A stretch of DNA of 59,032 bases, counting the filler, from Basidiobolus ranarum (taxonomy: Eukaryota), in NCBI GenBank assembly GCA_040143965.1. It is 9 parts of 9 records of this genome, joined end to end, with 100 filler letters (N's around TTAATTAATTAA, not from the genome) between each part and the next. Parts side by side here need not be neighbours in the genome. Positions count along the whole stretch, not along the records: positions 32,920 to 39,381 come from JASJQH010008187.1; 8 more parts are not named here. One strand, given 5' to 3'. A model generated the notes under the pieces. It made no database searches. It was given only the letters and a program-made list of their open reading frames with translations, and was not told where the DNA came from. Below are positions 6,501 to 57,361 of this stretch, one piece after another. Made by a program: the position numbers and the translations under genes. The first letter of the stretch is position 1. Each line of letters begins with the position of its first letter.

Positions 6501-6600
6501 NNNNNNNNNNNNNNNNNNNNNNNNNNNNNNNNNNNNNNNNNNNNTTAATTAATTAANNNNNNNNNNNNNNNNNNNNNNNNNNNNNNNNNNNNNNNNNNNN
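6501..6600. other. Artificial contig linker N-TTAATTAATTAA-N; also at 13096-13195, 19676-19775, 26249-26348, 32820-32919, 39382-39481, 45937-46036 and 52487-52586
   Basis: Identical 100-nt N-padded spacer with stops in all six frames; the flanking segments decrease monotonically in length. Confidence 0.97.
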
Positions 6601-13095: not shown

Positions 13096-13195
13096 NNNNN
13101 NNNNNNNNNNNNNNNNNNNNNNNNNNNNNNNNNNNNNNNTTAATTAATTAANNNNNNNNNNNNNNNNNNNNNNNNNNNNNNNNNNNNNNNNNNNN

Positions 13196-16009
13196 GACTT
13201 TAGTTTTGCCTATTGAGTCCACTGACTGTAGTTTGCCTCAAAGTTTTGGTAACACTGCCAAAAGTCAAGATACCGTGGAGTTACCACAGTTATATGACCA
13301 GAATGATGTAGGTCAAAATGCAACTTTGGTTGAACCAGTAAGTCCAGACAGCTTTGAGGACTTGCTGCTAGATGTTGACCTTGGTTATTCCAGTACAGAT
13401 GGTAGTACATCAGAAGTTGAAGAAGAAGACAATGCTTTTGTCATGGACTCTTTGTTATTGGCAAACATTAGCCCTGTTATAACATGCACAACAAAGTAAG
13501 CATTTTGATTATTGAGGAGTGGAGGGTTCAATCCAATCTTAGCAACCAGGTGTTTATTGGTTTTCTTACACTTTTACCATGGTTGATTGGCAACAGTTGC
13601 TTGCCACAGATCTGGTACAAGTGAAAAACACTTGTCAATCATATGACTTAAGATCCATCAGTAATTAAAATACCTGCATGTCCAAATGGTTGTTTGGCTT
13701 TCACCAGTGATCTGAAAAACCTGAAGTCATGTACTGTTTGCTCACAATTGGCCATCACTGAATCAGGTAAATATTTTTCATATTTGGCATTCATACCATT
13801 GATTCTCTGTCTTAAAGGTTTGATGAAAGCACCCAAGTATATATCATTGATCCATTACCAAAGTACTCACCGTAAAGCTGATGATATTACCAATATACCC
13901 ATTGAATATCACTACCAGAGTCTGAAAAGTCAGGGTTTCTTTGTGAACAAATATGATCATGCAATTGCCTTGGCCCTAAATAGCTTCTCACTAAACAAAT
14001 ATAACATTAGAGATGCTGCTGGCCCATAATTATAATTAAATTGAATCTCCTCCTGACAAATGGTATAAGAGTCAAGATATTTGGATACTATCCATCATAT
14101 CTGGACCTAAATCACCGGTGCTTATAGATAGCTTCTTTGAGGCTTTCATGGTAGAATTCAAATGGTTATCTAATGGGGTTCAGATAGGTTAATAATTTTT
14201 TAAAGCCAATATCATTGAATGTATTGGTGACACTCCTGCAATCAGTAGAAATGGAGGTTTTTGTGAGTACAATTCACTATCTTGCTGTAGATTTTGTCAT
14301 ATCAATGGAGCTTTCTCAACCAGTTACATGCATTACTACTCTCCAAAAGCAACACTAAACTCCATGATTTTACCATCAATAGCCTGGTCAGATTTCAACA
14401 TGCTCACTAATATCAATTCACCAAAAAGTCAGTTTAACATCAAACCTGGGATTAGCTGTAAGCCTAAGATTATTTTGCTAAAGGGGATCAGCTAGAGCCA
14501 GATATTCTCATTAGGCACTATGTACTTACTATTCAACAACATTCCAATAATACTTACTCAGCTTTACAGTAAAACTTCAATCTGAATGAGCTATTTGAGA
14601 TTGGATGAAAGTTTGAATTGATTGGAAAATGCTTGAAAACATCAAGATACCATCATATTTTACCAGAACTCCCATTAATATCCACTCATCTAGGTATTTA
14701 TTCAAATGAAGAGACTGGAAGTAATGGATTTGTATATATTGCAGTGGAATCTTGAAGACATTTCTGCCTGATAAGTATTACAAAATTGGCAGTTGTTTGT
14801 AGATATTTTTAGTATATTCTTATGGTATCAGCTCACATTGGCCTATCTCAGGCAAATACAGTGACTGTGTCAAGATTTTGTCATTGGATATGAAGAACTT
14901 TATTACAGGTTTAAAGAAGATAGATCAAACTTATGCAGGTATTCAGTACATTCCCAGCTGCATCTTGCATGATACTTAGAGACTATAGGCCCTTGCTATG
15001 AATTCTGTGAGTTCCCAATGGAGTGCGCCTGTGGTGAAATGATGCTCTGTGTGCAATTGTCAGTATAACCATATACTATTCTGATTAACAATGTATCAGC
15101 AAAATCAGTGATGGATGTAATGCAATGGGTTAAGGAGACTCCAGCCTAACCATAACCTTAACCTTCTAACAAAGGGATCTTTTCAATCTGCTCATGGGTT
15201 TTCATACTGTTTGAGCACAACAACAGCTACAAAAACAAACCCATGGACTCTGAGTAAGTACCTCTATAATTTGTACTAATTTGTTTATGTGATAATCTGA
15301 TGGTGTTTTTATGAAAACTCCAAGACAAACTTCTTGGTGAGATAGATCAAGATATGCAGTATTATTGTTTTAGCAAGAGGTAATCTATTCAACCAATGAC
15401 ATATCTACTTGTGGCAGGACATTTGTTGACTGAAAGTTCAGGATAATTTGGCTGAATTCTCTATGGAAATTTGCCAAAGTCCAAGAGGTTATTCTCATTG
15501 TGAATGGTAACAAGAGTCAGCCATTTGCCAAGTGTTGGTGCTATTCAAAATTACAGATATTTAACAATTTTCCATCATTAGTTTGCTGGTAAAGCATATT
15601 GATGGTATTGAGTTATGTATGATCATTTAAGTTTGTGCATATGTAGAGACTAAAGACAACATGATTCTTGCATTTTTTGAGTCTCATTATGGCTGGAATA
15701 CAAAGCCTAAAATAACAAAATAAAAGCATGCATACTAACTCAAACTCCTATAGCAGAAAACTCAGTAATTTTCCATTCAAAAATTAGCTTTTTGCAAAAA
15801 TTGTTGGAAATTGAATAATACATGCCAAATATGAGCATCAATCTTTTACCATGTTTGAATATCATTAAAATACCATTAAGAAGCTGCTATATTAACATCA
15901 AAATTCCTGGCAGAATGTAAGCTACCAATATTGTGATGGTCCCCTGACAGTTTTGCAATCCAGAAGGGTGGATCTGCTCCAGATAAAAGCCATTTTATTT
16001 TTGTTAGGG
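13196..16009 (+). mobile_element. CACTA/EnSpm Tnp2 transposon, degenerate near-complete transposase plus 3' terminus
   Basis: CPNGCLAF...CTVC zinc motif, IISGPKSP, IGDTPA, CRFC; many stops and frameshifts; ends TTTTGTTAGGG at 16009. Confidence 0.9.
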
Positions 16010-19675: not shown

Positions 19676-20103
19676 NNNNNNNNNNNNNNNNNNNNNNNNN
19701 NNNNNNNNNNNNNNNNNNNTTAATTAATTAANNNNNNNNNNNNNNNNNNNNNNNNNNNNNNNNNNNNNNNNNNNNAAGTGATATGGACAAGATTTGGATT
19801 TGTGAATTATACACATGAGTTTTATTGAATTGAATATATCCTATTTGAATTTTACTATGAAATAGGATTATTGGACAAGCTCAGATCATAACAAGCATGC
19901 CTGTCAAGCATGGGTGAAAATTTCAGGTGATTTGGAGAAGTTTTGAGAAAATAGTGAAAATTGGTAAAAGTGATCTAATTGATATTTCTATCAATTAGAG
20001 CAATAAACACATGTTTTTGAATGGCAGAATTGAGTGCTAAATAATCAGAATATGAATAAACTAACTACTAAATAATGAGTTGCTATTTACCTATTTTCGA
20101 CAG

Positions 20104-21185: not shown

Positions 21186-21538
21186 TAAAAATATGTGAAT
21201 GTCTTGGTTAAACATTTGATTGGGTAAGTTACAGTATAAATTGCTTATTGTTACAAATTCATTAATTAGCAAGTTATAAGCTATGGGATGAACTTGCATT
21301 GTCAGTTACCCAAGATGTTAATTTGGCAACACTAAATTGGGTAATGTGGTACAAGCTAACACAATATCTCCAAAAAAATCATTGTGTCTGATTGTGATGG
21401 GATAATACCATATTGTTCCTTATAGTGTCCAATCAAGTGCTATAGGACTTAGCCATGGTAACAGACTGATTGTGCCAGATAATCTGTTAGCAGGCTGGAT
21501 TGTCCAGCACAATCAACCTGGTCAGATGGAACAAGTCT
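21186..21538 (+). repeat. Unclassified dispersed repeat; homologous copy inverted at about 39030-39381
   Basis: About 350 bp of clear similarity between contigs 4 and 6; CpG-poor. Confidence 0.75.
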
Positions 21539-26247: not shown

Positions 26248-26661
26248 ANNNNNNNNNNNNNNNNNNNNNNNNNNNNNNNNNNNNNNNNNNNNTTAATTAA
26301 TTAANNNNNNNNNNNNNNNNNNNNNNNNNNNNNNNNNNNNNNNNNNNNCTGGAACTGTCTGTCAAGGTGGTGTAAACCAAATGTCCTGTGGCTTTTAGTT
26401 TAGGAATTGATATTAACTCAACTAATAAATACTTCATGACGACAACTTAGTCTCGATATGATTGGACAACGTTTAAAGGTGATTAGGCAGATCTGATTTG
26501 TTAAAATGCCGATCATAATATGGAGGCAGGGCTTTATTTAGGTTAGCTTTGTGTAAGCTACTCGAGAATAGCCTTTCTCTGATAAAATATGGCAAAGGTT
26601 TATTTATGAAAGTATTAAGCGCAAAGGACATTAGTAAGCTGAAGAGTATACATAACATGAA

Positions 26662-29166: not shown

Positions 29167-31931
29167 TCAATAGAATGGAAAGCGATGATTGTTGACTCCC
29201 ATCGCGTTCATAGAAGCGTGCTTATATTCTGGACGCATGGCTTTATACCCAACATTTGCTATCGGTGCTGTAGGCTGAGTGGGGAAAGCATTGGGATGAG
29301 CCTGTTCCCTCAAAAGCTTCCCTTGAATGCGCTTCCCATATGGAGTATTTTTAATGAACGGGATCATAGGCTTGATGCACTCAACTAATAGAGAGCGTTG
29401 CACAGGGTCTGCATAATCCAAGGCAGTTTGAACCACATAATTAGCGAATGAGTCTCTCAACATCTTCTCCAACTGTTCGGGGTTCAGCAATTCCTCAATA
29501 AGACCTTTACGGGTTTCGTGATCAGCAACTCGAATACACTTCTCAATCACGTTGGAACTGAACTTCTGGATAGAGAGCACGCATACACTACCCCAGAATG
29601 TTCTTATCAAAGAGTTCGAAAAATGGTCCTCGCCCAGATCCAACACGTATTGAACTACATAATTCCCAAATGGATCTTGGACAAGCTTCAGCCCATTCAC
29701 TGTAATCTCGCTGATTAGTTGAGCCTTCTGAGCAGGAGAGGCATAGTCAATACACCGTTGGAATACACAACAGCCGTGACGATGAGAAGCAACCTCGATG
29801 CAATGATGACAGACCGCATCATATATGAACTGGTTGTTTTCTGCTGACATGGAATTCAAACATTTCTGAATAACATGATTTCCATTCAAATCTTTAATAA
29901 GAGGAACTACGCTTGGAGTCAAGGCGACGATAACCAACTGAATCTGCTGTGCGTTCGATAAATATTCGATTAATTTCTGGGCTGCTCGCGTTCCATGCAT
30001 GTTCAAAGAAATGTTAACCAGTTCTGGGGCCACTTTTCCCACCAAAACGGTTCTTTGCTCATCTCTAGAGTACTCGAGCAATTTTTGGCATAAATAGTTG
30101 CCAAATGGGTCGGTCATCAAATCAACAAAATATCCGTTCACTTCTTCGAAAATGAAATCCGTGTAAACCGGGTTCTGCTCCTCTAACTTCTTTTGCAAGT
30201 AGCGACACCCGTACTGATCTCTGCACAATCCGTGGATCTCACCAACTAGACTTTCCAAGCTAACCCCTTGGAACCGGTTCATTAACTCGACGTCATTCAC
30301 TGGTTTCTTGTGGTTGCCTTTGTTAGAGGATGGCTTGGAATTCTTTGCAGTATTTGTTTTGGGATGATGATAACCATTTTGATGGCTATTAGCTGGATTA
30401 CCGGATCCAAAATCCCCAGAACCATTAGGTTTGTAATGATTCTCGTGGTAGTTACCACTAGGCACCAGCTTTGGTACCAGATGGTTTGCTTCAACTTCAT
30501 GAGAATAAGCTGGTGGCTTACGTATTCCACCACTCTGCTTGAAGTATTGATGGCGAGGGTCATGCTCCATCGTCACGGGGTACCCGTCACCAATCACATC
30601 AAATAGGTCGGGTGTAAAGAAGTTTTGATTTCTAGCCGAGCTTGGTATAGAACCCAGGTTATCGTATGAATTCATCTTTCCGCGAATTGGTCGACCCTCG
30701 ACCCTTGCGGTAGTAACAAAGGGTGCCCATGAATTTGGATTGATATCTTCAGCTGCGGCCATTTGGTGGGATACCGCAGTGAATGAGGAAATATCTAAGC
30801 CAGGAGAAGTAGTGGAAAGCTGCTTGGCCATTACAAGTGAATTAGAATCAATGATTGATGTTTGAAGACCTCGTTATGTACTTACAGTGGTGGGGAATCT
30901 ATCGGTTTCCTTTTGGATACGAGGATTTCTGTGAGAATATGGCCCGCCTATGTATACCATTAGTTTACAATACCCAACATGATGAAGGCAATAACTATAC
31001 GTGCCTTGGGGATTGAAGTTACTATCAAATACAGATGCCAAGCCAGTGTGTCCATTTAAGTAGTCCTGCTTGAAATGTAAATCTTTTGAAGATTTGCTGT
31101 TGTACAATATATTACTTTCATCCAAATACGATGATCTTCTAAGTTGAATGCTTAATATCAGTAAATATCGAAACAAACCACCATTAACGAAATACTAACT
31201 CTTTTAATCTTTGTGAGCCAATATCTTCCATTTGAAGCTTATTAAATCTTTCCCAAATATTGCTATCATCACTGGGAAAGCGTTTGTAGAGTGAATGTCT
31301 CTTATCTTGAGCTACTTCGGCATGTTGTGCTTCAATACCATGTCTATTCGGAAGTCCTGTATACTCTTCCGAGAAACCAGGCTCTTGAAACAACCCCTCA
31401 TTTTTTAAGGTTGACGGCATAGTATTAGCTCGATGTCTGTTTTCGAGGAAGACTGCTTTCGGCGGAAGAAGTTGAATAGGTTCAGTTTGTAGTCTAGCAA
31501 TACCAAAGTATGACTAATATTCAGAAATCCAAGTTAGTAAATTTAGTCAACGAAGAATGGGTTGAAATGTATTGTACCTGATGAGAAGTTTCTTCTATAG
31601 GATTATCGAAAGTAGTACCACGATGATCATATGAACCTCTTTGAAATGCTCCCTCACTTGGAGGAAAAGGGCCGTCACGAATAAAATCAAGGGATCTATT
31701 GTTGGAGTTTGGTGGTACCTCCTCACGTCGAGATAACAACCTTTCACGCGAATTTGAAGGCTTAACGCGAGCATCCGAGAGGTTTTCTGGCATGTAGTCC
31801 GTGGGATGGTGAAGTACCTGTTCACTCGTTGACCTATTTAGAGTGCCGAGTTTTCTTTTGGAAATGTCTACATCAAAAGTACTTTGGTCACGTCCATTAT
31901 TGGAGTCGTGAGCGGCGCGTTCTTTAGACAT
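29167..31931 (-). CDS. PUF4: Pumilio/PUF RNA-binding protein, Puf4/Puf5 clade, multi-exon
   Basis: Eight PUF repeats with recognition motifs CRYLQ, NYLCQ, TRAAQ, NHVIQ, CCVFQ, NYVVQ, SNVIE, NYVVQ (Puf4-type). Upstream low-complexity exons lie in ORFs 30874-31931; the exact 5' structure is less certain. Confidence 0.9.
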
Positions 31932-33787
31932 CTATTGACAGCTTTCTACGAATCTTTGAGTGTGTTTATTGGATTAATGTACAATACTATAAGGAAGGAA
32001 ATATTAAATTAGAAAAAAACCAAGGTTACACATAAAGAGAAGTAATGGTGACGAGAGAAAAGAATTATCAGAGCAATTGAACTTGGTAAATACTTACATA
32101 TTAAAAGTACCCCTTTTAACGTAAACAGAATACAGAAACAGTCGATAGATATTAGGAAATAATATAGTATACAAAGTGGAATTCTAACGATAGAGAGGCA
32201 AGTACTCCAAGATAAGAATCTAGGGCAATTCAAGAAATAATGAAAAGATAAAAACAAGATTCAGAGTGAATCCGAGATAATAACAAATATAAAAAGGGTT
32301 TCTTAAAAATCGGAAACCTGAGAAACCATACGGAAAAACATCATGTACATATACGGAATGGGATATTTGAATAGATCATGATATTTAAATCACCAATTAA
32401 AGCTTCACTAATAGATTACGATGGTGTACTGGGGATAGACAATGGCAAGTGGAGTTGGGTAAACAAATGGGTCACTAAATTTAGCTCACTCGAACGCGAG
32501 ATGACTCTTGGAGCGCCATAATCTATTTTGTGTTCAGTCTTGGGTGTTCAGCCATATTCTAGCATCGGAACACTGGCGAGCTGTGTAGCGTGGCCGTGTT
32601 TCTGACCATGTTTCTCATCATCTCGGTAATACTAACATAGACCAAGAGAAATATTCTCCTTCATAGATATTTATTCTGACTGAGATTGTTGGATTATAAA
32701 GTCAAGGAGTGGGAATGCTGAAGTTTGAGAGTAACGTCAAGAATTGTGTGAATAGTGATTTTCTACAAGAAAGGGTAAAGGATGTGGCATGGTCATAGTA
32801 AATAGGGTAGAGATGTAAGNNNNNNNNNNNNNNNNNNNNNNNNNNNNNNNNNNNNNNNNNNNNTTAATTAATTAANNNNNNNNNNNNNNNNNNNNNNNNN
32901 NNNNNNNNNNNNNNNNNNNATTTTAAACCGTGATCAATTTCTAGGTGGCTGAATATCCATATTACTATTTGCCCATTGACCAATAAAACACCTTACAAAA
33001 AACAAATTGTGGCTCATTTTTGATGATAATAAATAGCAGGATTCTAGCCATTAATGCCGATTACTCCCTAACCGTACTACTCTTCCCCAGGTAACCCTGA
33101 ACAGAAAATCCAAATAACACCCTGGAGATAACCTTAAATAGTTTAGTTCGGGATTATCGATTGATGCGGGAAAATCATATAAGTAAACTTGATTGGTATG
33201 ACACTAACCCCAGAAACATGGGATTGTCGGTTTGAATAAAAGGTTAACTGCTACTAAAATGCTTGGTATTTCTCGGTGTAGTAACTGCGTTATATAAGAT
33301 TCAGTGGTTAGTTGGTTGGAGTGGTTCGTTGATTGGAATATACAGTAGTTACATTCATAATTTCAAACTGGCAAATCTACATTCCTAACATGTTACCACA
33401 TGTCAAAGTTTGAACTGTTCACTGAGAAATGACTACAGCTAGAATACAAATCAAATGCAAAAATCTAAAATCGCAAATAATCTAATTAATGAGCCACTTT
33501 ATGTGATGATCTTTTACTTCGCATCGCTGAACACCAATCTGAATTTAGTGGTTAATAGACTTTAATAGTTACGATTGGTATACTAACTGGTCATCCAGTA
33601 AGAATGTAGGGGTTCCCAGTATTTAGGAATTTGATAACCAAATTACTGGGACACCTAAATGATAACTGAGATTTATGCTAGATATTTATGCTTTTCCCAA
33701 GGTTGCTATCTTATCTATTTAGTGTAACATAACGAGAAGTTGTCATCGGCGTTTGTGACTAGAATCCATTAATTCCCTAAATGGGTC

Positions 33788-33866
33788 AAAACGTGATATC
33801 TTTCTGTTTTATTAATGAATCATCGACTAGCAAACTAGTAAATCACCTATCAATTGGTCACGTTTT
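33788..33866. promoter_or_regulatory. Inverted pair of TCACGTTTT motifs (Pho4-like bHLH sites)
   Basis: AAAACGTGA at 33788-33796 and TCACGTTTT at 33858-33866, 370-450 bp upstream of a secreted phosphoesterase gene. Confidence 0.4.
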
Positions 33867-34238
33867 AAAAAGCGAGCATCCAACGCGAATGGTGAAAACT
33901 TATTCTGAGTTGTCATAACTTGTACAGATGTATTTTACGTGGTCTGTGTAAAGTATAAACGAATTATTACCTCATTTCAGTGGCTTTTGATAGACTGTAA
34001 TGTAGATACTATCAATCTGGAGCGACAGCATGAATAATGCCCAAGTTCTTATTTGGTCTACTAATGTAAAGTCTACCAGTCTGCTGCACTGAAATAATTT
34101 CAACAGGAGGGGGTAGTTGGCCATGTCATTTTCTAATGAAAATTTTTTCACCATTGATTGTGTACGCATTGGAGGTATATAAGGCCATCAAACTGTCTTT
34201 ATTCTCATCATCCATTTGCAATCCAACTAATCTTCAAT

Positions 34239-35463
34239 ATGCAAAAGTCTCTTTCATTGATTGCTCTGGCATGCCTTGCTTCACATGTTACCCTGGGCCA
34301 AGCTGCCTTCCGCCCAGATGCTAACAATGATGGACTTGTGAATGGAGACGACGTTACATTCGTCAACGGTTTCTTGGGTTCAAACCAGGCTAGCTCCAAC
34401 TGGCAAGTAGCCAAATCGGCGGATGTAAATGGAGATGGTCAAGTGACATCCACTGATGTTGACCTTGTTAATGCTCGAATCAATCAATTCCCAAAGTCTG
34501 AATTCAAGCGGGTTGTATTCATCGGGATTGATGGTGGTGGTAACTTCTTGCAGTGGGCCAACACACCGGTTCTTAAGCAATTCCTATCCTCCGGAGCTTC
34601 TACTTTGAACGCTGCTGCAATGACACCAACCATTAGTGGTCAAAACTGGGGTTCAATGATCACCGGTGTGACTCCTGCTAAGCATAAGCTCACCAACACC
34701 AATGCTGCTGCTGATCCTTATCCTGAGAATTCGGCTTATCCCACCATATTCAAGCTGCTTCTCACTGAACGTCCAGCTGCCAAATTGGCTGTCTATTCTG
34801 TATGGAAGCCAATCATTGATGGAATGGTTGAACGTTCTTTGAATGTTACCAAAGTATCTCAAGGTGATGAGGAGCTTACTAACAGTGTTATAAGCTACAT
34901 TAAGGCGCAAGGTGCGGAGACTCGTTACCTCTTCATCCATTATGATGCTATGGATCATGTTGGACATGGTATGTTAGAGTTCTTTAACATTCAGTAGAAT
35001 GAGGGAAATATGCTTGGGAAAAAGCGAGTCAGCATAAGATTTTCTTTACTAACACGTTCATTTTAGCATCTGGATACAACTCCACTGCTTATATTAATGA
35101 ATATCCAAAGGTTGATGCTCGTGTTGGCCGCGTCTTAGACGCCATCAATACAGCTGGCCTGGGCGACGATACACTTGTACTGATGACCGCAGATCATGGA
35201 GGTACCCCTGGCGGTTCCCATGGTGGCACCACCGCGGCTGAAGTGAACATCTTCTGGGGAGCCAAAGGAAAAGGAGTGAATGTAGCCAAGTTGGCAAAGG
35301 GAGTACGCAATATGGTTAGTATTGAGATGTGGACTTGATGTCGTTATGACTTAGAGTCAAGTATTAACGATGATCTTTATAGGACATTGCTGCTACCGTA
35401 GCCAATGCGCTCCGTTTACCACAACCAGCTAACTGGGATTCCAAATTTGTCCCCATTTACTAA
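34239..35463 (+). CDS. Secreted dockerin + alkaline-phosphatase-superfamily (type I phosphodiesterase/NPP-like) protein, 352 aa; exons 34239-34968, 35067-35314, 35383-35463
   Basis: Signal peptide MQKSLSLIALACLASHVTLGQA; duplicated DxNxDGxVxxxD loops; metal and catalytic motifs FIGIDG, PTISGQNWGSMITG, DAMDHVGH, TADHGG..SHGG, NMDIAAT; two GT-AG introns (TACTAAC in intron 1) give one open frame. Confidence 0.9.
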
Positions 35464-35915
35464 AGCAATCAAAATGGAGTTGTTCATATACTTTATTACG
35501 CATATTTTATAAGAAATAAATGCATTTCCAAACATTTCGCGATATTCATTATGCTGCATATGTGAAGATATTATGGATATTGGAAAGCTAGATGCTTTGG
35601 ATGTTAAGCTGGCCATTATTTGGTGCATACATCCTCATTAGCATTACTTGTACACACAAAACATTTCTTTCAGCGTTCTCTAATTTGGTAATACTGAGAG
35701 AAAATCTAATATAAGACTATACATTACATCAAGGTTGTCATCACTAATCCCTTCCGTTGCAAGATAAATGACCTGGGCTGAGTATAAATCACTATTTTAT
35801 GTCAGAATCAACGTCCCGATCAATATTTTCAAATGTGCTTCATATCATTATTGTAAAAAAGCTGACATTGCTTATTACCCTTCTCTTCATGTAGCCTACC
35901 ACTACTACCTGCTCC

Positions 35916-36445
35916 CTAATCGTAATCCTCTTTGCTCCTCTTCCATTCAGACTTTTTGCTGTGGTTTACTCCCGTAGTCTTATGTGAATTTTTACCACTA
36001 GCACCCTTACCATCCTTGGTTCCATGTTCTTTTTTACCAGGAGTCAATTTGTTGTCATCACTCTTTCGCTCATGATCTTTGTTTCCACTGTGTATTCCTA
36101 CTGGATTAACTTCGTCACTATGTTTACCTCCATCTTCACGACCGTTGCCACCATTATTTTCATGAGTGTTTTTGTCAACCACTGCTCCAGCATCATAGCT
36201 CCTTCTGCCAATATGGTTTTCGTTGCCATTTCCTGGTCGAGATTGAGGGCATTGCTTGTCATCACACTTCAAGTCGAGACTGTTAGCACTCTAGACTAAA
36301 AATTTGTAATCCTTCCTGTTGAGAGGAGTGAGGTTACTGTCCAAGTTGTTTATACTGACATGATCACAGAGCATTACGTCCAAGCCTTTACCATAGGCTT
36401 TCAATGCAGCAACAACACCCCGGAAATACTGGCATATGACATTCA
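35916..36445 (-). pseudogene. Probable pseudogene: Cys-motif domain followed by G/K/H/D/N-rich low-complexity region
   Basis: SGVVAALKAYGKGLDVMLC resembles the motif repeated at 44076-44985; in-frame stops; hydrophilic ORF 35916-36272. Confidence 0.4.
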
Positions 36446-37479
36446 ATCGGGTGAGCCCATTAATAGGTCAACTTGCTAAAAGTAGTAAAACAAGCCTATC
36501 TTTTAAATGTTACATAATAACGAGTGCTCAGCGTCAATGAAACCATGATAATACGAGTTACTAAGGATTACACATGGATATTGGTTGAAAAATATGCTCC
36601 AGTATGGTACTTCCCATAGCGCTAAGCGCTATACTTGGAATAGGAATATACCATATTAGAAGTAATAGAGGCTTCGATGCCTGGCTCAACATCATCAACT
36701 AAGTTCATTAAATCCAGGACGTTCTTACCGGAAGAGTGTAATTCCATTCAGTCTTTAATTAAGGCGATGTGACGATATACTAATACTAATACATATTATA
36801 GGTAGGGTATATCTCCCTACTACTTGAACACCAGATTTTTACCCGAGTATGTTTCAGTCAAGCACTCACATCACTCTCCTAAACAGCTACGTAAACATCA
36901 GAGTCGAGTTCTTGCACTTCCAGTACATTCATGGTGTCTATTTCCGTCACCTATTCCAAGGCAATGGTGTCTATCCCAATATCTTGGTCAATGCTCTTTA
37001 CTTATGACTCCTTTTGCACCATTTTCTGCTATAGTCCCCGTGAAAGTCCTTTACATAAGCATCCTCTATAGCCATTCTCTTTGTAGTCGTTTTCAGTGCG
37101 ACCGGTCTCTCTATGATGCTTTGTATATCTATTCATTTCCAATAATAGCACTCTTAGTATAGTTATCGCCGCCATTACTTGCGGTGTAATATTGAGTTGG
37201 CACCAATCACTAATGTAGTTTATTAGTGTCTTTAACTGTTTAAGGGCAGCATCCCAATAAAGTACGTGAGCAAAATACAAAATGAAGTACTAGAACAGAA
37301 ATAGAATGACTATTTTACAGTCAGTATCTTTCATCCAAACTTAGCGCTCCTGAAATCATCAATATCAATCTATATATATCTCATACGGGAACAAAAGATC
37401 TCAGTTGATGCACTCTAAGGTAAAATTACCCTGGACCAAAAATATATTATTAGTTACTTAATTGGATTTCAACAAGTAA

Positions 37480-38480
37480 GATTTAGCAAAGAAGTGTCTC
37501 TTGTGACTTTCTCAAAAAAGCCACTAGATTACTATATCAATAAAATAGTTATATGAGAAGTATATATACCTACTGTTGATGGATCTGATTTTATTGCTGA
37601 TATTGTCCTCAATCAATGCAAGAACCCATGAGTACACTGATACAAGTTCTATGTTGGATGGTTACGGTTGTATGGAGTTTTCTTCAACCTATGCATCATA
37701 TTTAACAGTGATTTTTCTGCTATGATGTTATTGAGATTAACATATAGTAGTGCTGATAATTTCACCCATTGCCTCATCTCACCATAAGTACATTCACTGG
37801 GGAATTCCCTGAATATATAGCAAGGGCCTTTGATATCTAAACACTGTGAAAGTTGTGGTATGGTGTTTATCAAATACTGGGATAGATTCAGTCTATCTGC
37901 CCTAAATCTGTAACAAACTTTATCATGTTCATGTTCAAAATCTTCACACTGCTGCTATATCTCACTAAGAGCTGCCAATGTGAGTAGAAGTTGTAGGAAC
38001 CTTTCTGCAATTTCCACAAACAACTCCCAATGTTACTAATACTCATCAGGTAGAAATCTTTTCAAGATCCTACTGCAGTAAATACAAATTTAATACTACC
38101 AGTCTTTGCATTTAAAAGAGGACCTAGATGAATAGATGCTTATGGGAGACCTTGTAATGTATTCTGGCATCTTAATGTATCAAGCTTCTTAACAACTGCT
38201 TCAAACTTGAATCTTATCTTTTATGGCTCATTCAGATTGAACTTTTCACTGCAGAGCTGTGTAATTGGTACTGGAATGTCATTGAACAACAAGTTCATAA
38301 TACCAAAGCAAAAGCTATGGCTCCAGCTAATCCCCTTCAACAATACAATCCTAGATATATTGCTGATCCCAACTTTGATATTAGACTGACCATTGGTATA
38401 TTGATATCACAAACCATACTGAAATCCATCAAGGGCTTGATGCTATATTGATGGAGCTTATTGTTGTGCTTGGATGGTAC
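37480..38480 (-). mobile_element. Diverged CACTA/EnSpm Tnp2 fragment
   Basis: Similar to 5550-6500 (LSQCLDIKGPCYIFREFPSEC; FKCKDW). Confidence 0.85.
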
Positions 38481-38559
38481 TATCTGGCATGATGTTATTT
38501 ACTATGTCTACGTAATTATTTTATTTTTGTAGTAAATTTAGAAAAAGTGCTTGTGGACA

Positions 38560-39029
38560 TTTTGAACATTAAAAAAATGTTGAAAGCTTTATTCTTGTTG
38601 TCTCAAGTCTAGAGCTCTTAATGGATTTCTTTGAGTGTGAATGTATTGAGAATTAATCAAGATTTTGACTTCTTTGCATAACTTTGATTGAAGCTTATAA
38701 AATGATTTTCCTCTATGCTTTCCTGTCAAAATGCTATATCTCTTTAAGAAGCCAAAGCTATGCTCTACTCTTGCTCTGAGATGGGAAAAATATTATTGAA
38801 AGCTTTTGCCTCTTTGTAAGTATTCCTCTTCTAGACCTCTTGTTAACTGTGACCAATTCTAGCCTTTTGCATTCTTCACCAACACAAGCTAAATCAGCCA
38901 TAGTCTTTTCATGTCTTACAAATGGTCCATCCTTCTGTATGTAAAGCCTTTTGTCATGGTGTCTCCCTGGATGAGGTCCACTAAACCAAATGATACTTGC
39001 TTCCAAATGTTGAAGTTTATTGTCTTTAG
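38560..39029 (-). mobile_element. PIF/Harbinger-IS5-like transposase (DDE_Tnp_4) C-terminal fragment
   Basis: SGPHPGRHHDKR...MADLACVG...LTKRQK, then after a frameshift LRARVEHSFGFLKRYSIL. Confidence 0.8.
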
Positions 39030-39973
39030 ACTTGTTCCATTGGACCAGGTCAGATCATGCTGCTCAATCCAGCCTGCTAGTACACCATCTGGCACAATCT
39101 GTCAATTACCATGGCTGGGTCTTATAACACTCAATTGGACACTATAAGGAACAATATGGCACTATCCCACCACAATTGGACATGATGATTTTTTTGGAGA
39201 TATTGTGCCAGCCTGTACCAAGTTACCCGATTTAGTATTGCCAAATTACAATTTTGGGTAACTGACAAAGTAAATTCATCCCCTAGTTTGTAACTTATGA
39301 ATTACTGAATGTGTAACAATAAACAATTTATACTGTAACTTACCCAATCAAATGTATAACCAAGACATTCACATGTTTTTANNNNNNNNNNNNNNNNNNN
39401 NNNNNNNNNNNNNNNNNNNNNNNNNTTAATTAATTAANNNNNNNNNNNNNNNNNNNNNNNNNNNNNNNNNNNNNNNNNNNNAAGCAAACGGTCATGAGCA
39501 GAGCTAGGAACAGATTGAACTTGATCATGGTAAAGGAAGTGATTTCTTGCTCGTACTCCTAGGAGTTGTTAATCATTTATACACTACCATCATATAAGCA
39601 AAATTATAATGACGATTACAGTTGGATATAATAAGTTATATATTCATCTCAACTCAAGGTTAAATCCACTACCTCGCACTAGAATTCAATAAGTATTGTG
39701 CTCACCCAGTTGCTGTAGACTTTAGAAAAACCGATGAAGAACAAAATCCCTCTTAGTAACCCCACTAGCGAAAATGTTATTTTCATCATAACAGTGTTCA
39801 CGAGTGGACTGTCAACTGGTAAACTACTTAATGAAGAAGCTACTAATATGTAATGTAGAGATGATATTGCGTGGTTATAATACAATCATTCATTTAAGGA
39901 CAACATCCTCGACATGAATCGAAATTATCAAGCCTCCACTCAACTAGTCCCTCAGAAACTTTGGCTACAGGCA

Positions 39974-40934: not shown

Positions 40935-41845
40935 ATGTCCGAAGCACCAGCAATGGCGGGAGTTCAATCTCATAGTGAAGTGATCAATGTTTCTCGCGTG
41001 GATGAATTTTATAACAAATGGGCAGATGTAAGTGAAACTATACTATCATTTTTGTATCTTCATGCTTAATTATCGAACTCTTTTCCTATTAGATATATGA
41101 CCACGATGGAAACGTACTACAACAAATAGATGATCACCGATTTAATGATGTTATGCCAAAGTTAATGAGTGAATATTCACCATCACCTTCAAAGAAAACT
41201 CTTCGGATCCTGGATTTTGGATGTGGAACTGGTAGAAATCTCATCAAGCTCGTGGAAATGCAACAGAAAAGATCCGACTCGAAGGAAGAGGGGAGAGGAT
41301 GGGAAGAGGTTGAAATAGTTGGGATGGAGGTGTCCCCAGGTATGATGTCTAAGGCTCAAAAGAGAGTTGCTGAAGTGAATGATCTTCAGTCATCTACTTC
41401 CTCTCCTACTGTATCTGTTAGTTGGCTTCTCCATGATATCATGTCAGCTCTTCCGGTTCCACTTAAAGCACAAAATGTCGACATCCTTTACACCACTCTT
41501 GTCTTGGAGCATCTCCCTGAGCTTACACCATTCTTTAAGTTTGCCAGGGAGATTTTAGTTCCTGAAAATGGAAGACTTTACATCTCAAATATGCATCCTG
41601 ATATGGGAAAGAACACCCGTGCCGGTTTTACAGATGCACAGACTGGAAAAAAGGTTATAGGGTTCTCGGCCAATCATTCCATTGAAAGTTTAATACAAAT
41701 AGCTGAGAGTAATGGATTCAAGCTGAGGCAGAAGTTTGAAGATGGTGTTGAGGATTCCGATCACGCCAAAAGGTTAGGATCACGAGGTGAGAAGTGGATT
41801 GGAGTTACGATGTTGGTGGCCTTAGTTTTTGATATTGCTAACTAG
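40935..41845 (+). CDS. Class I SAM-dependent methyltransferase; exons 40935-41027 and 41093-41845
   Basis: ATG at 40935, GTAAGT..TAG intron, spliced YNKWADIYDHDGNVLQQIDD; motif I ILDFGCGTG; TLVLEHL. Confidence 0.88.
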
Positions 41846-45790: not shown

Positions 45791-46334
45791 CTTCATACCC
45801 GAGGTTTAGCTCATACCCAACATGAGTTTGTATCAATATCTCCATCAAAGCCCACCATTGTATTAACATTGCTGAATCAACATTCTTCCAGCTATCTGGC
45901 AGATACCCTGCAATATTGTGCCACTCTGTATTAAGTNNNNNNNNNNNNNNNNNNNNNNNNNNNNNNNNNNNNNNNNNNNNTTAATTAATTAANNNNNNNN
46001 NNNNNNNNNNNNNNNNNNNNNNNNNNNNNNNNNNNNACAATACACATACCCACAATACCGTATGTACACTGCGGCTCATATATCTGAGATGGAATCTAAT
46101 CAGTCTTCGTCTTGATTTAAAATGTACTTCAAATGATTTAAAATAGGCCTCTTTTGGAGATAAGGATAATCTCATTGCTCCATTAATCCAGATGTGATAT
46201 TGAGCGGATGCCGATGATTGGCAAGATTATCTTGGTCCACTGATTCTGAATCATAGAGGATTAGGTTTAGTATATGTGCAGGTACGGGTATGTGCGTGAA
46301 TAAGAGTGGCGAGATGAGTTTGACAATCGAATCT

Positions 46335-46645: not shown

Positions 46646-47675
46646 ATGTCCGCTGCCAACTTCGCTACTCCTCAAAATTTAACTGCTCAAAATGGTGTTC
46701 AATCCGTTGAAGACCGTAAATCCGCCTTCGCTGTCAAGGCTGGTTTGGCTCAAATGTTAAAGGTATGGTGTGATATGATGTGACATGATATACGATCAAA
46801 GTCTCCTTCCAAGAATTGTTATTCATTCCAATTTATTCATTTAGGGTGGTGTTATCATGGATGTTATTGACGCTGAACAAGCCCGTATCGCTGAAGAAGC
46901 TGGTGCCTGTGCTGTCATGGCTTTGGAGAGAGTACCCGCTGATATTCGTAAGAACGGTGGTGTCGCTCGTATGTCCGACCCTAAGATGATCAAAGAAATC
47001 ATGGCCGCTGTTACCATTCCAGTTATGGCCAAGGTTCGTATCGGTCACTTTGTTGAGGCCCAAATCTTGGAAAGTGTTGGTGTCGATTATATTGATGAAT
47101 CTGAGGTCTTGACCCCCGCTGATGAAGCCAACCACATTGACAAACACAAGTATAAGGTTCCTTATGTTTGTGGTTGCAAGAACCTCGGTGAAGCTCTCCG
47201 TAGAATCAACGAAGGTGCTGCTATGATCAGAACCAAGGGTGAGGCTGGTACCGGTAACGTTGTTGAGGCTGTTCGTCACGCTCGTACTGTTGCCTCAGAT
47301 ATCCGTCGCGGTAGAGGTATGACTGATGAAGAACTTTATGCTTATGCCAAGGATCTCCAAGCTCCTTATGACCTTCTCAAGGAAACCGTTCGTTTGGGTC
47401 GTCTCCCAGTTGTCAACTTCGCCGCCGGTGGTGTTGCCACTCCTGCTGATGCTGCTTTGATGATGCAACTTGGTTGTGATGGTGTCTTTGTTGGTTCCGG
47501 TATCTTCAAGTCCGGAGACCCAGCCAAGCGTGCCAGAGCCATCGTTCAAGCTGTCACCCACTACAACGACCCTGCCGTCATTGCCCAAGTTAGTGAAGAT
47601 CTTGGTGAAGCTATGGTTGGTATTAACATTTCCGATATCCCTGCTGATCAAGTTTTCGCCAAGCGTGGATGGTAA
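46646..47675 (+). CDS. SNZ1: Pyridoxal 5'-phosphate synthase synthase subunit (PdxS/PDX1); exons 46646-46762 and 46845-47675
   Basis: [17 protein letters not shown]...[11 protein letters not shown]...RTKGEAGTG...[14 protein letters not shown]...AKRGW; strong codon bias. Confidence 0.98.
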
Positions 47676-48391: not shown

Positions 48392-49916
48392 TTATTCTTG
48401 TTTAATACCAATGGCATTCAACCTTTCTACCAAAGGTGGATGAGAATAATGATATGTAGAATACCATGAATCTGGGTTCATGTTTCCTTTGTTCTTGGTA
48501 TGTAATTTGATCAAACCAGATTTGAGTTGTTCTGCGTATCCTAGTTTCTCTGCATAGGAATCTAAATAAAAGTCAAGTATAGGTTAGGGTTTCGGTTAGG
48601 TAGGGGATAGGGTTGAATGAAATTGAATAAGAATATATTACCTGCTTGGAATTCGTGCTTTCTACTCAACACATTCATAAAGAATCCAAGAAGACTTTCA
48701 ACGGGGGAGAAGATATAACTGAACAACATGAAACCAACCAAAGTTGGGGTAACATTGAAACCGAAATCTTGATAAAGCGTTTGACTGGAGATGAACTTGG
48801 AGAACATATAGAACAAAGTGAAGAGATGTACTTGAGAAATACCAAACAGTTTAAAGACATGATTGAACTTCCAGTGACCAAGTTCATGTCCTAATACTGC
48901 GCATATCTCTGGGTTGGTGGAATCCTCTAATAAAGTATCAAATAGTACAATACGCTTGTTCTTAAAGAATCCATAGAAATAGGCATTGCTGTGACTGGAC
49001 CGTTTGCTTCCATCAATCACGTAAAGTTGAGTTAGGGGGAATTCAATACGTTTAGCTAAAGCTTCAATATCTTTTCTCAATTCATTTTCAGGCAATGGGG
49101 TGAAGGTGTTGAACAATGGTTGAATGTAAGTAGGATAAATAGTGACCATCAAGATTTGGAACATCAACCTAATGAAATGATTAATTAGTGACATGAATGA
49201 ATGATATGATAGCTTCGTTACTTACATGAATACCCAAATGTAAAAGTAAAATTGTTCACCAGTCGACTTGATAATCCATAAGAAGGCACTGACGAGTGGG
49301 ATTCCTATAGCTCCACCCAAAAGATATCCCTTAAGCATATCCTCAAAGAACAACTTGTATGTTTGTTTGTTGAAACCATGACGTTGCTCAATGACAAAAG
49401 TACTGTATAGACTAAAGGGAATCGAGGTAATGGACCCAATCAAAGAAATGATCACGAAGAAAAACACCGATTGAACGATCTAACAAAGTGAGTTAGTAGG
49501 TAACCGGAGTTGAATACTGGTAAATGAAAACACACCTCATATTCACTACCATATCCAAAGTAACCGATCAAACTACCAGAGACACCCCAGGCCCAAGCCA
49601 AAAACTCATACTGAATTAGCATAGTATTCTCAAATTGAGACCAAGCACCAGATATGAAACCAAAGCGTGACTTGTCTAAACCATACTGTCTAGCTTTTTC
49701 AAACTCTTCTTCAGTAACTATATCTTCGATAGCTTTGGGTCGTCGTGGCTCTTGAAGCTTACAATGCTGACGATAGCTATATTTACAGGGTAATAATTAG
49801 AGAAAGAACGCACCATATTTAAAGGAATAGGATGAAGAGTAGAAATACCTTAAGTATGTTTCAAATAGATACACCGCCCATGAGAACGTCAGAACGTAAC
49901 TCTTGTAAGAACCCAT
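48392..49916 (-). CDS. STE24: CAAX prenyl protease 1 (M48 zinc metalloprotease), multi-exon
   Basis: FETYL-SYRQH, FVIEQRHGFNKQT, VIDGSKRSSHSNAYFYGF, HELGH, SRKHEFQA-D, YHYSHPPLVERLNAI. Confidence 0.96.
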
Positions 49917-50967: not shown

Positions 50968-52071
50968 TTAGATATAAATAGAATGGACTAATTTCGTGTC
51001 GGTATGAACCATAGATGGTGCATCAACAGAGATAATCATCTCGGCACCTTCATCAAGGTCGAGGTCAAGGTCGGAGAAGACCTCACTGGTATTATCCAAA
51101 GGAACATATCCATGACTCCCAATGTGGGTTGGTAGTAACTCCGGAGTTCCTTTAACAGGACCATGCCATTGCGGAGCGATACGCCCTTTGTAAACAATTA
51201 TGAAACATACAAAAGCGTAAACGAATCCTCCAATTAGATCGACAATGTAGTGATGACGGAAATATAAACAGGCCCACCAGATCCATGTGATGTATAGGAA
51301 ATTGAACGGAATGAGATATGGCTTTAAATGGCCCAGGAAAAGGTTGATCATGACGGCACATCCGCTATGTAAGCTAGGAAATGCTCCAAATACCAATGGC
51401 GAGTTATGAAAGGTATTTCCGTATAAATCAATCTTCAATATCTCATCTATACGAGCCAAACCTCCAGGCTCACCATGAATCGAGTAGTCCGCAGGCTCCA
51501 ACCCATAGAGATACAAGTACCAGGGAGAAGCAGTGGGGAATAAGAGTTGAGTAATGACACCAGCCAAGTTCATATATCCATACGCACGAACAAACTTAGG
51601 TAGAGTGCCTTTAGGTCCGAGGAGATACATCACTGGAACAGCAACGAATCCATTGACAAAGTGTAATATTCCATATACAATCCAAGCTAATACATCCTTC
51701 CAGTCAGATGTGTTACTCGCTAAGACATCCGATAGATTACCACCGAAAAGAAAAACCTCGGTTTTGGGTAAGAAAGTAGTATTGATACTTGGGCGAAGAT
51801 CAATGGGAACATTACCACAGGTGATAAATAAAGATAACCAGGTTATCACCGGTAATGCAGGTCGTATGATTTCGCGTGATCGAGGGATGAAGTAATAGAC
51901 ATTAGCACCGATAAGAATAACCGACAACTTCAATGCCCAGTGTAACGGGTTCCAAATGAGAAATGGGACTGAAGCAAGACATAAAAATGGTAGCTCAAGG
52001 TAAGACAGGTAAAGAGTGAACCGGTCGAAAAATCTGTAGTATGCCTTAATAAATGGCTGCAGACTCTTCAT
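50968..52071 (-). CDS. AUR1: Inositol phosphorylceramide synthase (PAP2 superfamily)
   Basis: DVLAWIVYGILHF, GYMNLAGVITQLLFPTASPWY, GGLARID, FGAFPSLHSG, HHYIVDLIGG; intronless. Confidence 0.94.
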   Translation of the reverse strand: MKSLQPFIKAYYRFFDRFTLYLSYLELPFLCLASVPFLIWNPLHWALKLSVILIGANVYYFIPRSREIIRPALPVITWLSLFITCGNVPIDLRPSINTTFLPKTEVFLFGGNLSDVLASNTSDWKDVLAWIVYGILHFVNGFVAVPVMYLLGPKGTLPKFVRAYGYMNLAGVITQLLFPTASPWYLYLYGLEPADYSIHGEPGGLARIDEILKIDLYGNTFHNSPLVFGAFPSLHSGCAVMINLFLGHLKPYLIPFNFLYITWIWWACLYFRHHYIVDLIGGFVYAFVCFIIVYKGRIAPQWHGPVKGTPELLPTHIGSHGYVPLDNTSEVFSDLDLDLDEGAEMIISVDAPSMVHTDTKLVHSIYI

Positions 52072-52586
52072 TGTGAAATTAAGATACGTTTACATGAGGT
52101 TTAGCCATGCAATATATATATGTTCAGATATCCGGAAAAAACCGATATCCTGATTTCCGAAATATCAATATTTTCTTATCATCGTGTTCATCATTTTTCA
52201 TTACCCGAATGCGGGAATAACGCGATTGACTTATACCTTAAGTGTCGCTTTATCCATGATCAGATTGCTATAAAATCAGGTAAACCCCAACATTTTCTGC
52301 TACGGACTCAAAAATTCTGATGCCGAGGATTATTATAAATCGGAAATTCGGCTCCAATCATGACTAGAATATTCTATAAGATATCCCTTTCTGCTTAAGG
52401 ATTGATTTCCATATTTAAATATTATCGATTCCCTCGGATAAAGCATTCATAAACGCGAATACCTTCTGACGACTTAACTTTATTTCNNNNNNNNNNNNNN
52501 NNNNNNNNNNNNNNNNNNNNNNNNNNNNNNTTAATTAATTAANNNNNNNNNNNNNNNNNNNNNNNNNNNNNNNNNNNNNNNNNNNN

Positions 52587-56039: not shown

Positions 56040-57361
56040 TTATTGAAAGTATTTGTCTCTAGAAGCACTTCGTAATGGCGTTTGTCCCCCAATACTAGAT
56101 CCACCAATGCTTGACACTCCATCTGCATCAAATTCAAATTGGGCATCTGATTCGTCATCGGCATTTAGTAATTCGCGAACTTCCCAATTGTATGCGTTAT
56201 CTCCAAAAGTGTATTCCAAATCTTCTTTGGTAATGGAATCCCAGTATTTGTAAACCATCATGACCGCTAACAAATTGAATATCACTCCAAAGAATGGCCC
56301 ATCTATGTAGTGATTGGTACTGTTACAAATGGTTTTGGAGAAGAAATGCGAGATCACGTTGGCTCCAACAAATGAGATCAATGCTAGAATGACATCGCCT
56401 AAAAGTGAATTGTCAGAGTCTATTCAAAACCATAATAATTTGCATGCGGACTTTACCTAGTGGCCAGCGTTCTTGCAAGGTCCCTACCACCAGTATAACT
56501 TGTAGAACGAAGTATATGAACACTGCGGCTGGGTTAAAGATCCAATAGATAACCCATAACACATAAGGCTTATCTGGGCTAAATCCGGTGGTCCAGCTAA
56601 GAGTAGTACCGATAGTCGTGGCATAAACCAAGCCGAACACAACAAGAGAGGAGATTCTCAATGACTTTAAAATAAAGCAGGTCAATGACTGTTGAAGGAA
56701 AATCAAGATCGCTCATACTCACCCAAAGTGACAATCTAGAGCCATCCTCGGCAAACTGGAACCCTATGAATCCATTCACAAGAAGTGCCCATATAGTAGT
56801 AGAAATTAATGAGATGTGCACCGCGACAATATACTGTTTGAATTTCAACATGTTAGATGATGTGTTTACTGAACACGTGCATAACATATACTGTACTTTA
56901 TAAGCTCCATTGGAAGCAGGTATCAACCCAGACATGGTGATAAAATCGAATACAAGCGTGAGAAAATACAGATAGAAGAATATGAGCATCTCCTTGCGTC
57001 CTATAAATAAATGAACGGTGTAAGAATCCACTACAAGGGAAGGCACCACCCCACGAGTACAGAGACAAACTTACCCACTGCAGTATACTTTAGAAATACG
57101 TTGTATACCATGATAACGGTCATTACCATTGCAATCAAGTCCATAATAAGTAAACCTAGTAAAATATTCGGCTCAGAAAGTGTGTAGTGAAATTCAATAT
57201 TGAACTTGAAAAGTACCAGGCTCTAAAAACAGGGTTCCTCCTATGTCTATGTTACGTGCAATGCAGCTAGGCTCTAAGCCTCCCGGCTGAGGGCCCACAA
57301 GAGGACATATTGGGAGCGCGAACTGATGGCAAAGATCGGTAAACTGACCAAACTGACCCAT
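56040..57361 (-). CDS. CHS7: Chitin synthase III export chaperone, multi-exon
   Basis: MGQFGQFTDLCHQFALPICPLVG...CIARNIDIGG, KYTAV-GRKEM, LLVNGFIGFQFAEDG, LQERWPL-GD, HYIDGPFF...LLAVMMVYKYWDSITKEDLE. Confidence 0.96.

Follow-up and report, generated by a model that had tools for sequence, protein, structure and literature searches.

Dockerins are modules whose calcium-binding loops carry Asp or Asn at positions 1, 3 and 5 and Asp at position 12, and noncellulosomal dockerins were reportedly described by Peer and colleagues in 2009. The modules called dockerins in anaerobic fungi belong to the CBM_10 family and are unrelated to the type I dockerins, as stated in a part of a 44-genome survey of horizontal gene transfer (HGT) that took in Basidiobolus meristosporus (PMC11291939). 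For the genus Basidiobolus, passages of another study report that bacterial-looking genes make up 2–5% of the gene models, that Firmicutes appear to be among the donors and that a minority of these genes contain introns (PMC7466969). Here, we describe a gene at positions 34239–35463 of a window (the whole stretch of 59,032 nucleotides that was analysed) from Basidiobolus ranarum, assembly GCA_040143965.1. Its product would combine a signal peptide, a two-loop type I dockerin and, directly thereafter, a compact (~265 aa, amino acids) two-metal phosphoesterase with a predicted serine nucleophile. We consider it likely that the gene stems from an old bacterium-to-fungus transfer of the whole dockerin–enzyme module, with the dockerin being kept only in Basidiobolus.

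The gene lies on the plus strand, with its ATG at 34239 followed, in a reading of positions 33800–36200, by a frame that stays open to 34968, and with a TAA stop ending its third exon. Exon 1 (34239–34968) codes for aa 1–243 and the first base of codon 244, covering the signal peptide, the dockerin and the first two thirds of the catalytic domain; exon 2 (35067–35314) completes codon 244 and runs to aa 326, and exon 3 (35383–35463) supplies aa 327–352 and the stop. Intron 1 (34969–35066; 98 bases, phase 1) has a GTATGT donor, a TACTAAC branch-point-like motif and an AG acceptor, and intron 2 (35315–35382; 68 bases, phase 0) a GTTAGT donor, a TATTAAC motif and a TAG acceptor, the GC content being 0.34 in both. 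The spliced coding length is 1059 bases, and a word-indexed search of 5.8 billion proteins showed the 352-aa product to be 100% identical to the B. ranarum protein K7432_013379 (P0004), also of 352 aa, whose record is titled "hypothetical protein" and whose UniRef name is "Dockerin domain-containing protein". Both splice junctions give gapless colinearity with intron-less bacterial homologues. Thus, the gene with an intact frame and two spliceosomal introns, as first proposed for this locus, is present at those coordinates, its introns being borne out by the colinearity and by the database gene model. The N-terminus is hydrophobic. The putative signal peptide (aa 1–22, MQKSLSLIALACLASHVTLGQA; 34239–34304) was read directly from the sequence and not with a predictor, and the AlphaFold2 model has a low-confidence N-terminal helix at residues 3–15. 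A TATATAA motif at 34176–34182, about 57–63 bases 5′ of the ATG, is a candidate promoter signal, and an AATAAA near 35524–35529, about 60 bases 3′ of the stop, a candidate polyadenylation signal.

Two close relatives of this gene were found within the genus: the orthologue of B. meristosporus CBS 931.73 (ORY01472), with 352 aa and 83–86% identity, on a contig of 187,922 bases, and a B. ranarum paralogue, K7432_002374 (P0006), with 80% identity, on a contig of 35,538 bases. The database model of the paralogue is 248 aa long; its last residues, "...GHGKYIC", fall at the very point where intron 1 interrupts the gene in the window. It is probably truncated at a shared intron that was missed and, since the model breaks off at the same position, intron 1 is probably older than the duplication of the gene in Basidiobolus.

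The N-terminal module (aa 26–87; 34314–34499) contains two loop–helix repeats beginning at residues 26 (DANNDGLVNGDD) and 61 (DVNGDGQVTSTD), with a spacing of 35 aa. Both 12-residue loops, aa 26–37 (34314–34349) and aa 61–72 (34419–34454), show the dockerin pattern and each is followed by a helix, placed at residues 36–43 and 71–82 in the AlphaFold2 model. Dockerin_1 (PF00404; gathering cut-off 22.9 bits) matches residues 27–82 at E-values of 3e-10 to 5e-9, with 36.7 bits for exon 1 and 40.4 bits for the segment, and scores 35.9 bits for the whole protein, whereas the EF-hand models (PF13499 and PF00036) score 11–20.6 bits, all under their cut-offs of 25–30. A separate AlphaFold2 model of the dockerin (residues 25–88) has a mean predicted local distance difference test (pLDDT) value of 90.7, and when it was compared with the PDB using Foldseek the first 30 matches listed were all dockerins, of both types I and II, at template-modelling (TM) scores of 0.53–0.69. 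Their probabilities go up to 0.99 while the E-values are weak (best 0.046), as is expected of a query of just 64 residues. EF-hand proteins rank after the dockerins in that list, at TM scores of at most 0.35, and a phmmer search of the PDB sequences with the N-terminal part matched Clostridium dockerins and no EF-hand protein. CBM_10 (PF02013), the dockerin of anaerobic fungi, is absent from the Pfam matches at E ≤ 0.01 (protein) and at E ≤ 1. The repeats hence represent a bacterial type I dockerin, as had been suggested for them, and the EF-hand alternative named at the same time is contradicted by both profile scores and fold comparisons. Loop positions 1, 3, 5 and 12 are kept in both loops in all three Basidiobolus proteins, which indicates that the dockerin is under constraint in this genus. 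A query with the dockerin alone (aa 22–90), a search of low sensitivity, returned the same three Basidiobolus proteins only, among 11 candidates of 193–616 aa; within that sensitivity, there is no sign of the dockerin having spread into other fungal proteins.

The remainder of the protein (aa 88–352; 34500–35460, interrupted by the two introns) is a catalytic domain of the alkaline phosphatase superfamily of the Phosphodiest type. In the spliced protein, Phosphodiest (PF01663) matches residues 92–292 at 78.1 bits against a cut-off of 23, and the weaker overlapping Pfam matches, Metalloenzyme and Sulfatase, belong to the same superfamily. The bimetal site is complete, comprising D98, S133 at the position of the nucleophile, D239/H243, D286/H287 and H295; all seven residues are invariant in an alignment of 67 sequences, where N153 is almost invariant as well. 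In the Xanthomonas nucleotide pyrophosphatase/phosphodiesterase (NPP), the residue aligned with S133 is the threonine of the "PSLTFPN" motif, a residue that we take to be the nucleophile of the NPPs. The AlphaFold2 model of the full protein, based on the same 67-sequence alignment, has a pLDDT of 94.6 and a predicted TM score (pTM) of 0.91. Its top Foldseek match is the Xanthomonas NPP (E 5e-14, TM score 0.60–0.62), the NPP-type matches have TM scores of about 0.60–0.64 at 13–16% identity, and those listed among the 496 matches at E ≤ 1e-3 are all members of the alkaline phosphatase superfamily. Likewise, phmmer matched the enzyme part to the PDB sequences of Xanthomonas NPP and ENPP1 (best E 6e-7), while each NCBIfam match stayed far under its cut-off. 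The assignment to this superfamily with all of its metal ligands, made in the original prediction, is therefore upheld by the Pfam score, the invariant residues and the fold matches, and the enzyme belongs to a subfamily without a close solved or characterized relative (PDB identity at most 16%). Judging from its sequence, the product is most likely secreted. By inference the enzyme hydrolyzes extracellular phosphate mono- or diesters, and one reasonable guess, for a fungus of guts and litter, is that it scavenges phosphate from polymers of microbes or of the host. A complex prediction between the dockerin (aa 24–87) and the catalytic domain (aa 88–352), run without alignment and without controls, scored 0.00, which speaks neither for nor against packing of the module on the enzyme.

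Proteins with both domains are found in bacteria. An HMMER search of 1.84 billion representative proteins recovered 4630 relatives at E ≤ 1e-3 and 278 at E ≤ 1e-30. Of the best 150, 12 align from query residue 35 or before, that is, with both dockerin and enzyme, and several bacterial matches run in one continuous stretch from query residue 26–27 to about 348. The named carriers come from the Bacillus cereus group (852 aa), Paenibacillus, Litoribacterium, Brevibacillus centrosporus, Brevibacillus laterosporus and a metagenome-assembled genome of Oscillospiraceae, with a typical Pfam architecture of LamG, one to three Big_2 domains, Dockerin_1 and Phosphodiest, in this order. When one representative genome per prokaryotic species was searched, residues 27 to 347/348 were matched in 10 of the best 80 loci (out of 427 stretches), all ten being from Bacillaceae or Paenibacillaceae. 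A hidden Markov model of the dockerin built here detected the module in exactly those 10 of the 80, one further locus being cut by the end of its contig, and in both the loci and the proteins the dockerin ends 0–4 residues before the start of the catalytic domain. More widely, the bacterial relatives pair the enzyme domain with LamG, Big_2, SLH, cohesin, LRR, FIVAR and PA14 modules, which points to substrates that are on the cell surface or associated with polymers.

Several individual members of this family are worth recording. The B. centrosporus protein (P0172/P0018, 333/314 aa) has a minimal dockerin plus enzyme architecture like that of the fungal protein. However, it has an internal gap of about 60 residues that removes the region of the D239 ligand, so that it may be inactive or mis-assembled. 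In a 1753-aa member (P0014), the phosphoesterase domain occurs together with LamG, two stretches of cohesin, FIVAR and LRR_5. In a 927-aa protein of B. laterosporus (P0141), the dockerin and enzyme are followed by Big_2 and then three SLH repeats; several records call this protein an "amylopullulanase", an apparent misnomer.

In eukaryotes, 30 look-ups and further names place the named members of the family in four early-diverging fungal genera only. Calcarisporiella thermophila has two tandem genes (VTP21DRAFT_7917/7918), whose products are the most similar sequences outside Basidiobolus, with 50–52% identity as compared to 41–45% for the bacterial proteins. Conidiobolus coronatus has at least three homologues, annotated as "alkaline phosphatase-like proteins", and Entrophospora also carries homologues. 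Dockerin_1 was found at E ≤ 0.01 in none of the 12 other proteins of the fungal clade, and the dockerin-less fungal homologues have hydrophobic N-termini of their own.

Trees were built from the catalytic columns only and are unrooted. The fungal rows form one clade with a support of 97 in a FastTree of 111 rows, of 99/96 in an IQ-TREE mixture-model tree of 56 rows and of 96/90 in a mixture-model tree of 52 rows that includes Entrophospora. This clade sits on the backbone beside the dockerin-bearing Bacilli within trees dominated by Bacillota: in the 56-row tree a split with a support of 99/96 separates fungi plus dockerin-bearing Bacilli from every other row, and in the 52-row tree the dockerin-bearing Bacilli form a grade, with a support of 91/89 for the fungal clade together with the remaining rows. 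As the trees are unrooted, a sister group cannot be named. A bacterial origin, as first proposed, remains the best reading of the catalytic-domain trees, given the position of the fungal clade inside bacterial diversity and its patchy presence in eukaryotes. An acquisition specific to Basidiobolus, however, does not fit the grouping of its catalytic domain with the Calcarisporiella, Entrophospora and Conidiobolus homologues. Vertical inheritance across fungi, which the original prediction had set against a transfer, is thus seen in part, namely within the early-diverging fungi as a single clade.

As for what the dockerin does, we propose that it is a calcium-dependent accessory module, under constraint in Basidiobolus, with a role in targeting or stabilization. 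We favor, as somewhat more likely than not, a calcium-dependent module that is part of the enzyme and stabilizes or targets it, over one that anchors it to a cohesin. Among five genomes of bacterial carriers, cohesin (PF00963) is present in three and gave no match in two, and in one of the latter the dockerin–enzyme protein holds the only dockerin of the genome. None of the 29 open reading frames (ORFs) flanking seven of the bacterial loci encodes a cohesin. Hence, the dockerin may well fulfil its role without a cohesin, as some bacterial carriers of the module are without any. The alternative, namely that the dockerin anchors the secreted enzyme to a fungal cohesin-like scaffold or to cohesin-bearing bacterial surface proteins, draws on the sequence and fold of the module, which are those of a type I dockerin, on its two intact calcium loops that are conserved in the three Basidiobolus proteins, and on a Ser–Thr pair at positions 10–11 of the second loop, a feature presumably linked to cohesin recognition in Clostridium thermocellum. 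Further, there are the cohesins in three of the five carrier genomes and in the 1753-aa family member itself. We nevertheless regard such anchoring as unlikely: beyond the two carrier genomes without a cohesin match and the cohesin-free surroundings of the seven loci, the dockerin is internal with a fixed junction that lacks a linker, while the usual dockerins are terminal and linker-borne, and three other fungal lineages do without the module.

A stronger form of the docking idea holds that Basidiobolus retained the dockerin for use, with the enzyme docking onto cohesin-bearing surface proteins of gut Bacillota or onto a fungal cohesin-like scaffold that has gone unrecognized. This is a long shot. 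Were it true, the dockerin would have been kept through use for hundreds of millions of years; docking onto Bacillota would amount to a cross-kingdom cohesin–dockerin contact through which an enzyme that liberates phosphate would sit right on the cell walls of bacteria, and a fungal scaffold would be the first bacterial-type cohesin–dockerin system in a fungus. Among the bacterial genomes, long ORFs with adjoining cohesin and dockerin were seen in Paenibacillus mendelii (genome G004, contig C38:35263–35802 and contig C37:707050–707622) and in a second genome (G002, contig C52). These adjoining pairs are non-cellulosomal cohesin–dockerin pairs in aerobic Bacilli.

Returning to the origin of the gene, under the old transfer that we favor the dockerin and enzyme would derive jointly, as one module that already existed, from a family of Bacillota whose best-sampled members today are in Bacillaceae and Paenibacillaceae. 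In this family the dockerin is always immediately N-terminal to the enzyme and usually lies behind LamG and Big_2. The module would have entered early-diverging fungi long ago, or entered one of them and then spread from fungus to fungus. Its dockerin would have been lost two or three times, in Calcarisporiella, Entrophospora and Conidiobolus, and retained in Basidiobolus, where the copy would since have acquired two spliceosomal introns, taken on the codon usage of its host and undergone duplication.

The competing account is a recent and independent transfer, with the Basidiobolus gene coming directly from a gut or soil bacterium resembling Bacillus or Paenibacillus and the dockerin-less fungal versions being of separate origin; the fungal clade would then be an artefact of sparse sampling of donors or of shared compositional drift. 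We rate this as rather improbable, even though it would explain why the dockerin is seen in Basidiobolus and in 0 of the 12 other proteins of the fungal clade. It likewise suits the fact that the closest full-length matches, at 41–45% over residues 27–348, are proteins of Bacilli, the modest support of 70 for the fungal clade in the largest FastTree, and the bacterial-looking gene models, Firmicutes-derived ones included, that parts of PMC7466969 report for Basidiobolus. Set against it are the support for the fungal clade in both mixture-model trees (99/96 and 96/90), the greater proximity of the Calcarisporiella proteins than of any bacterial ones, and a gene that is fully ameliorated and has two introns. 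Further, a tree in which Basidiobolus is made to join the dockerin-bearing Bacilli and to leave the other fungi is worse by 14.8 log-likelihood units and is rejected by the approximately unbiased (AU) test with p-AU 0.029; the rejection is mild, and the group tested was chosen after the tree had been seen.

Several other observations sit uneasily with an old transfer and are to be set beside that caveat. In the 231-row FastTree the fungal clade is supported only at 70, and in the unrooted trees its position relative to dockerin-bearing and dockerin-less bacteria shifts between the 56-row and the 52-row versions. On the 52-row tree, the dockerin state needs at least four changes, and the presence of the dockerin in Basidiobolus alone entails two to three independent losses in the other fungi. 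Entrophospora and three other members of the clade are without an obvious signal peptide; hence, secretion is not a family-wide trait. Finally, the contig of the gene is without a second recognizable gene (Pfam matches at E ≤ 0.1 in 0 of 11 ORFs of at least 70 aa), and its 6.46 kb provide no linkage to a fungal gene in this assembly. Taken with these points, an old transfer of the whole module is still the account that we consider likely.

That the dockerin and enzyme were joined in the fungus, by fusion of a bacterial dockerin after its transfer to a separately acquired or native phosphoesterase, would account for the other fungal homologues being enzymes without a dockerin. The alignments speak strongly against it. 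The dockerins of the fungus and of the ten Bacilli align over 62 residues without a gap and share, beyond the calcium ligands, an invariant Ser and Trp in the linker between the repeats. The identity between fungus and bacteria is 26–44% over the dockerin and 41–45% over the whole match; with the former being no higher than the latter, there is no sign of a later, separate capture of the dockerin, which looks as old as the adjoining enzyme domain and is as diverged from its bacterial counterparts as the enzyme is. Given the same order, junction and gapless alignment of dockerin plus enzyme in 10 of the 80 bacterial loci and in further bacterial proteins, the fusion is bacterial and not fungal. 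A fungal fusion is accordingly very improbable, and the original description of a fungal gene fusing the two domains has to be given up in this respect, as the pair already abuts in the same order in the bacterial proteins.

The gene also has the hallmarks of its host. The GC content of its contig is 0.379, with 0.345–0.393 in the other pieces of the window, its GC at third codon positions (GC3) is 0.42 as compared to 0.38–0.45 in fungal genes of the same assembly, and its synonymous codon usage correlates with that of the assembly's fungal ORFs at r = 0.83. Dispersed repeats at 37489–38453 and 39028–39381 are common to this contig and to three other pieces (5532–6500, 14334–15335 and 21186–21538) at 68–85% identity; one of these pieces has a Pol polyprotein fragment at 3992–4573, and the shared repeat families may be remnants of transposons. 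The two canonical introns (without whose removal the frame is broken), the host-like codon usage, the repeats and similar GC shared with other contigs, the orthologue on a contig of 188 kb in the independent assembly of another Basidiobolus species, the paralogue on a 35.5-kb contig and a best bacterial identity of just 45% together mark this as a genuine nuclear gene of B. ranarum and make it very unlikely that it is contaminating or mis-assembled bacterial DNA, in spite of its contig being short (6462 bases) and devoid of another recognizable gene.

The window as a whole is made up of nine contigs arranged in descending size from 6500 to 6446 bases, which are separated by eight artificial 100-base spacers, each consisting of 44 N, TTAATTAATTAA and another 44 N (6501–6600, 13096–13195, 19676–19775, 26249–26348, 32820–32919, 39382–39481, 45937–46036 and 52487–52586). 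The contig of the gene (32920–39381; 6462 bases) is the sole stretch physically linked to it, and arguments from neighborhood are valid within one piece only, since adjacency across the spacers is not physical. On it, a 124-aa frame on the minus strand (35916–36290), about 450 bases downstream of the gene, is rich in G, K, H, N and D and without a Pfam match; it may encode a secreted protein of low complexity or be due to chance. The other contigs encode, on the plus strand, a CAP-family protein (11934–12512), a methyltransferase (41093–41842) and an SNZ/PdxS homologue (46845–47672), and, on the minus strand, a PUF-repeat protein (29170–30873), a Ste24-like M48 protease (48565–49221), a PAP2 protein (50971–52089) and the fungus-typical Chs7 (56600–57070). 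We dropped the fungal genes elsewhere in the window as linked context, because the spacers put them on separate contigs; they show that the assembly is fungal and nothing more.

Database records already carry the automatic labels "dockerin" and "alkaline phosphatase-like" for these proteins, while we found in the searched literature no description of any fungal protein with a type I dockerin or of the bacterial dockerin–phosphoesterase family. A text search did not find the word "dockerin" in the main text of PMC7466969, whose supplementary list of HGT candidates may include the B. meristosporus orthologue, and ORY01472 and the Conidiobolus proteins KXN65220, KXN66455 and KXN66457 are not in the examined supplements of PMC11291939. 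Neither the presence of bacterial genes in Basidiobolus nor that of dockerins outside cellulosomes is new, and nothing is overturned here: the gene is a real and well-preserved case of a known kind of event. Its interest is as a clean and datable example of a multi-module bacterial extracellular enzyme that entered fungi as one unit, with one lineage keeping a bacterial protein-interaction module intact and its sister lineages trimming it. It also draws attention to a sizeable and apparently unstudied bacterial family, in which a dockerin is welded to a small alkaline phosphatase-like enzyme and which calls into question the habit of treating every dockerin as a cohesin-binding anchor. For the biology of Basidiobolus, it would add a candidate secreted phosphate-scavenging enzyme of bacterial descent.

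Placed beside known systems, the dockerin is like the cellulosomal type I dockerins of Clostridium thermocellum and C. cellulolyticum in its duplicated calcium-binding loop–helix, its three-helix fold and its Pfam family, with 21–35% identity to the solved dockerins, but is unlike them in being N-terminal, in being welded to an enzyme that is not a glycoside hydrolase and in its presence in a eukaryote. The catalytic domain has the superfamily fold and the two-metal ligand set in common with the NPPs (Xanthomonas NPP, 2gsn/7n1s, and ENPP1/3/5/7), from which it differs in being about 120 residues shorter, in having Ser for Thr at the position of the nucleophile and in its low identity of 13–16%. 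The transfers discussed in passages of PMC7466969 are likewise from bacteria to Basidiobolus, but those are centered on genes for secondary metabolites. Among fungi, the dockerin-less homologues share the catalytic domain at 37–52% identity and belong to the same clade as the Basidiobolus proteins, with the catalytic domain of the Calcarisporiella and Conidiobolus versions coming directly after the signal peptide. The closest counterparts are the Bacillota proteins of the form LamG–Big_2–dockerin–alkaline phosphatase family, such as the 852-aa "Ig-like domain-containing protein" of the Bacillus cereus group and the Paenibacillus and Neobacillus proteins of 680–716 aa. In these, the dockerin abuts the same small domain and the catalytic residues are all the same; they have LamG and Big_2 at the N-terminus and are intron-less, whereas the fungal protein has the signal peptide alone in front.

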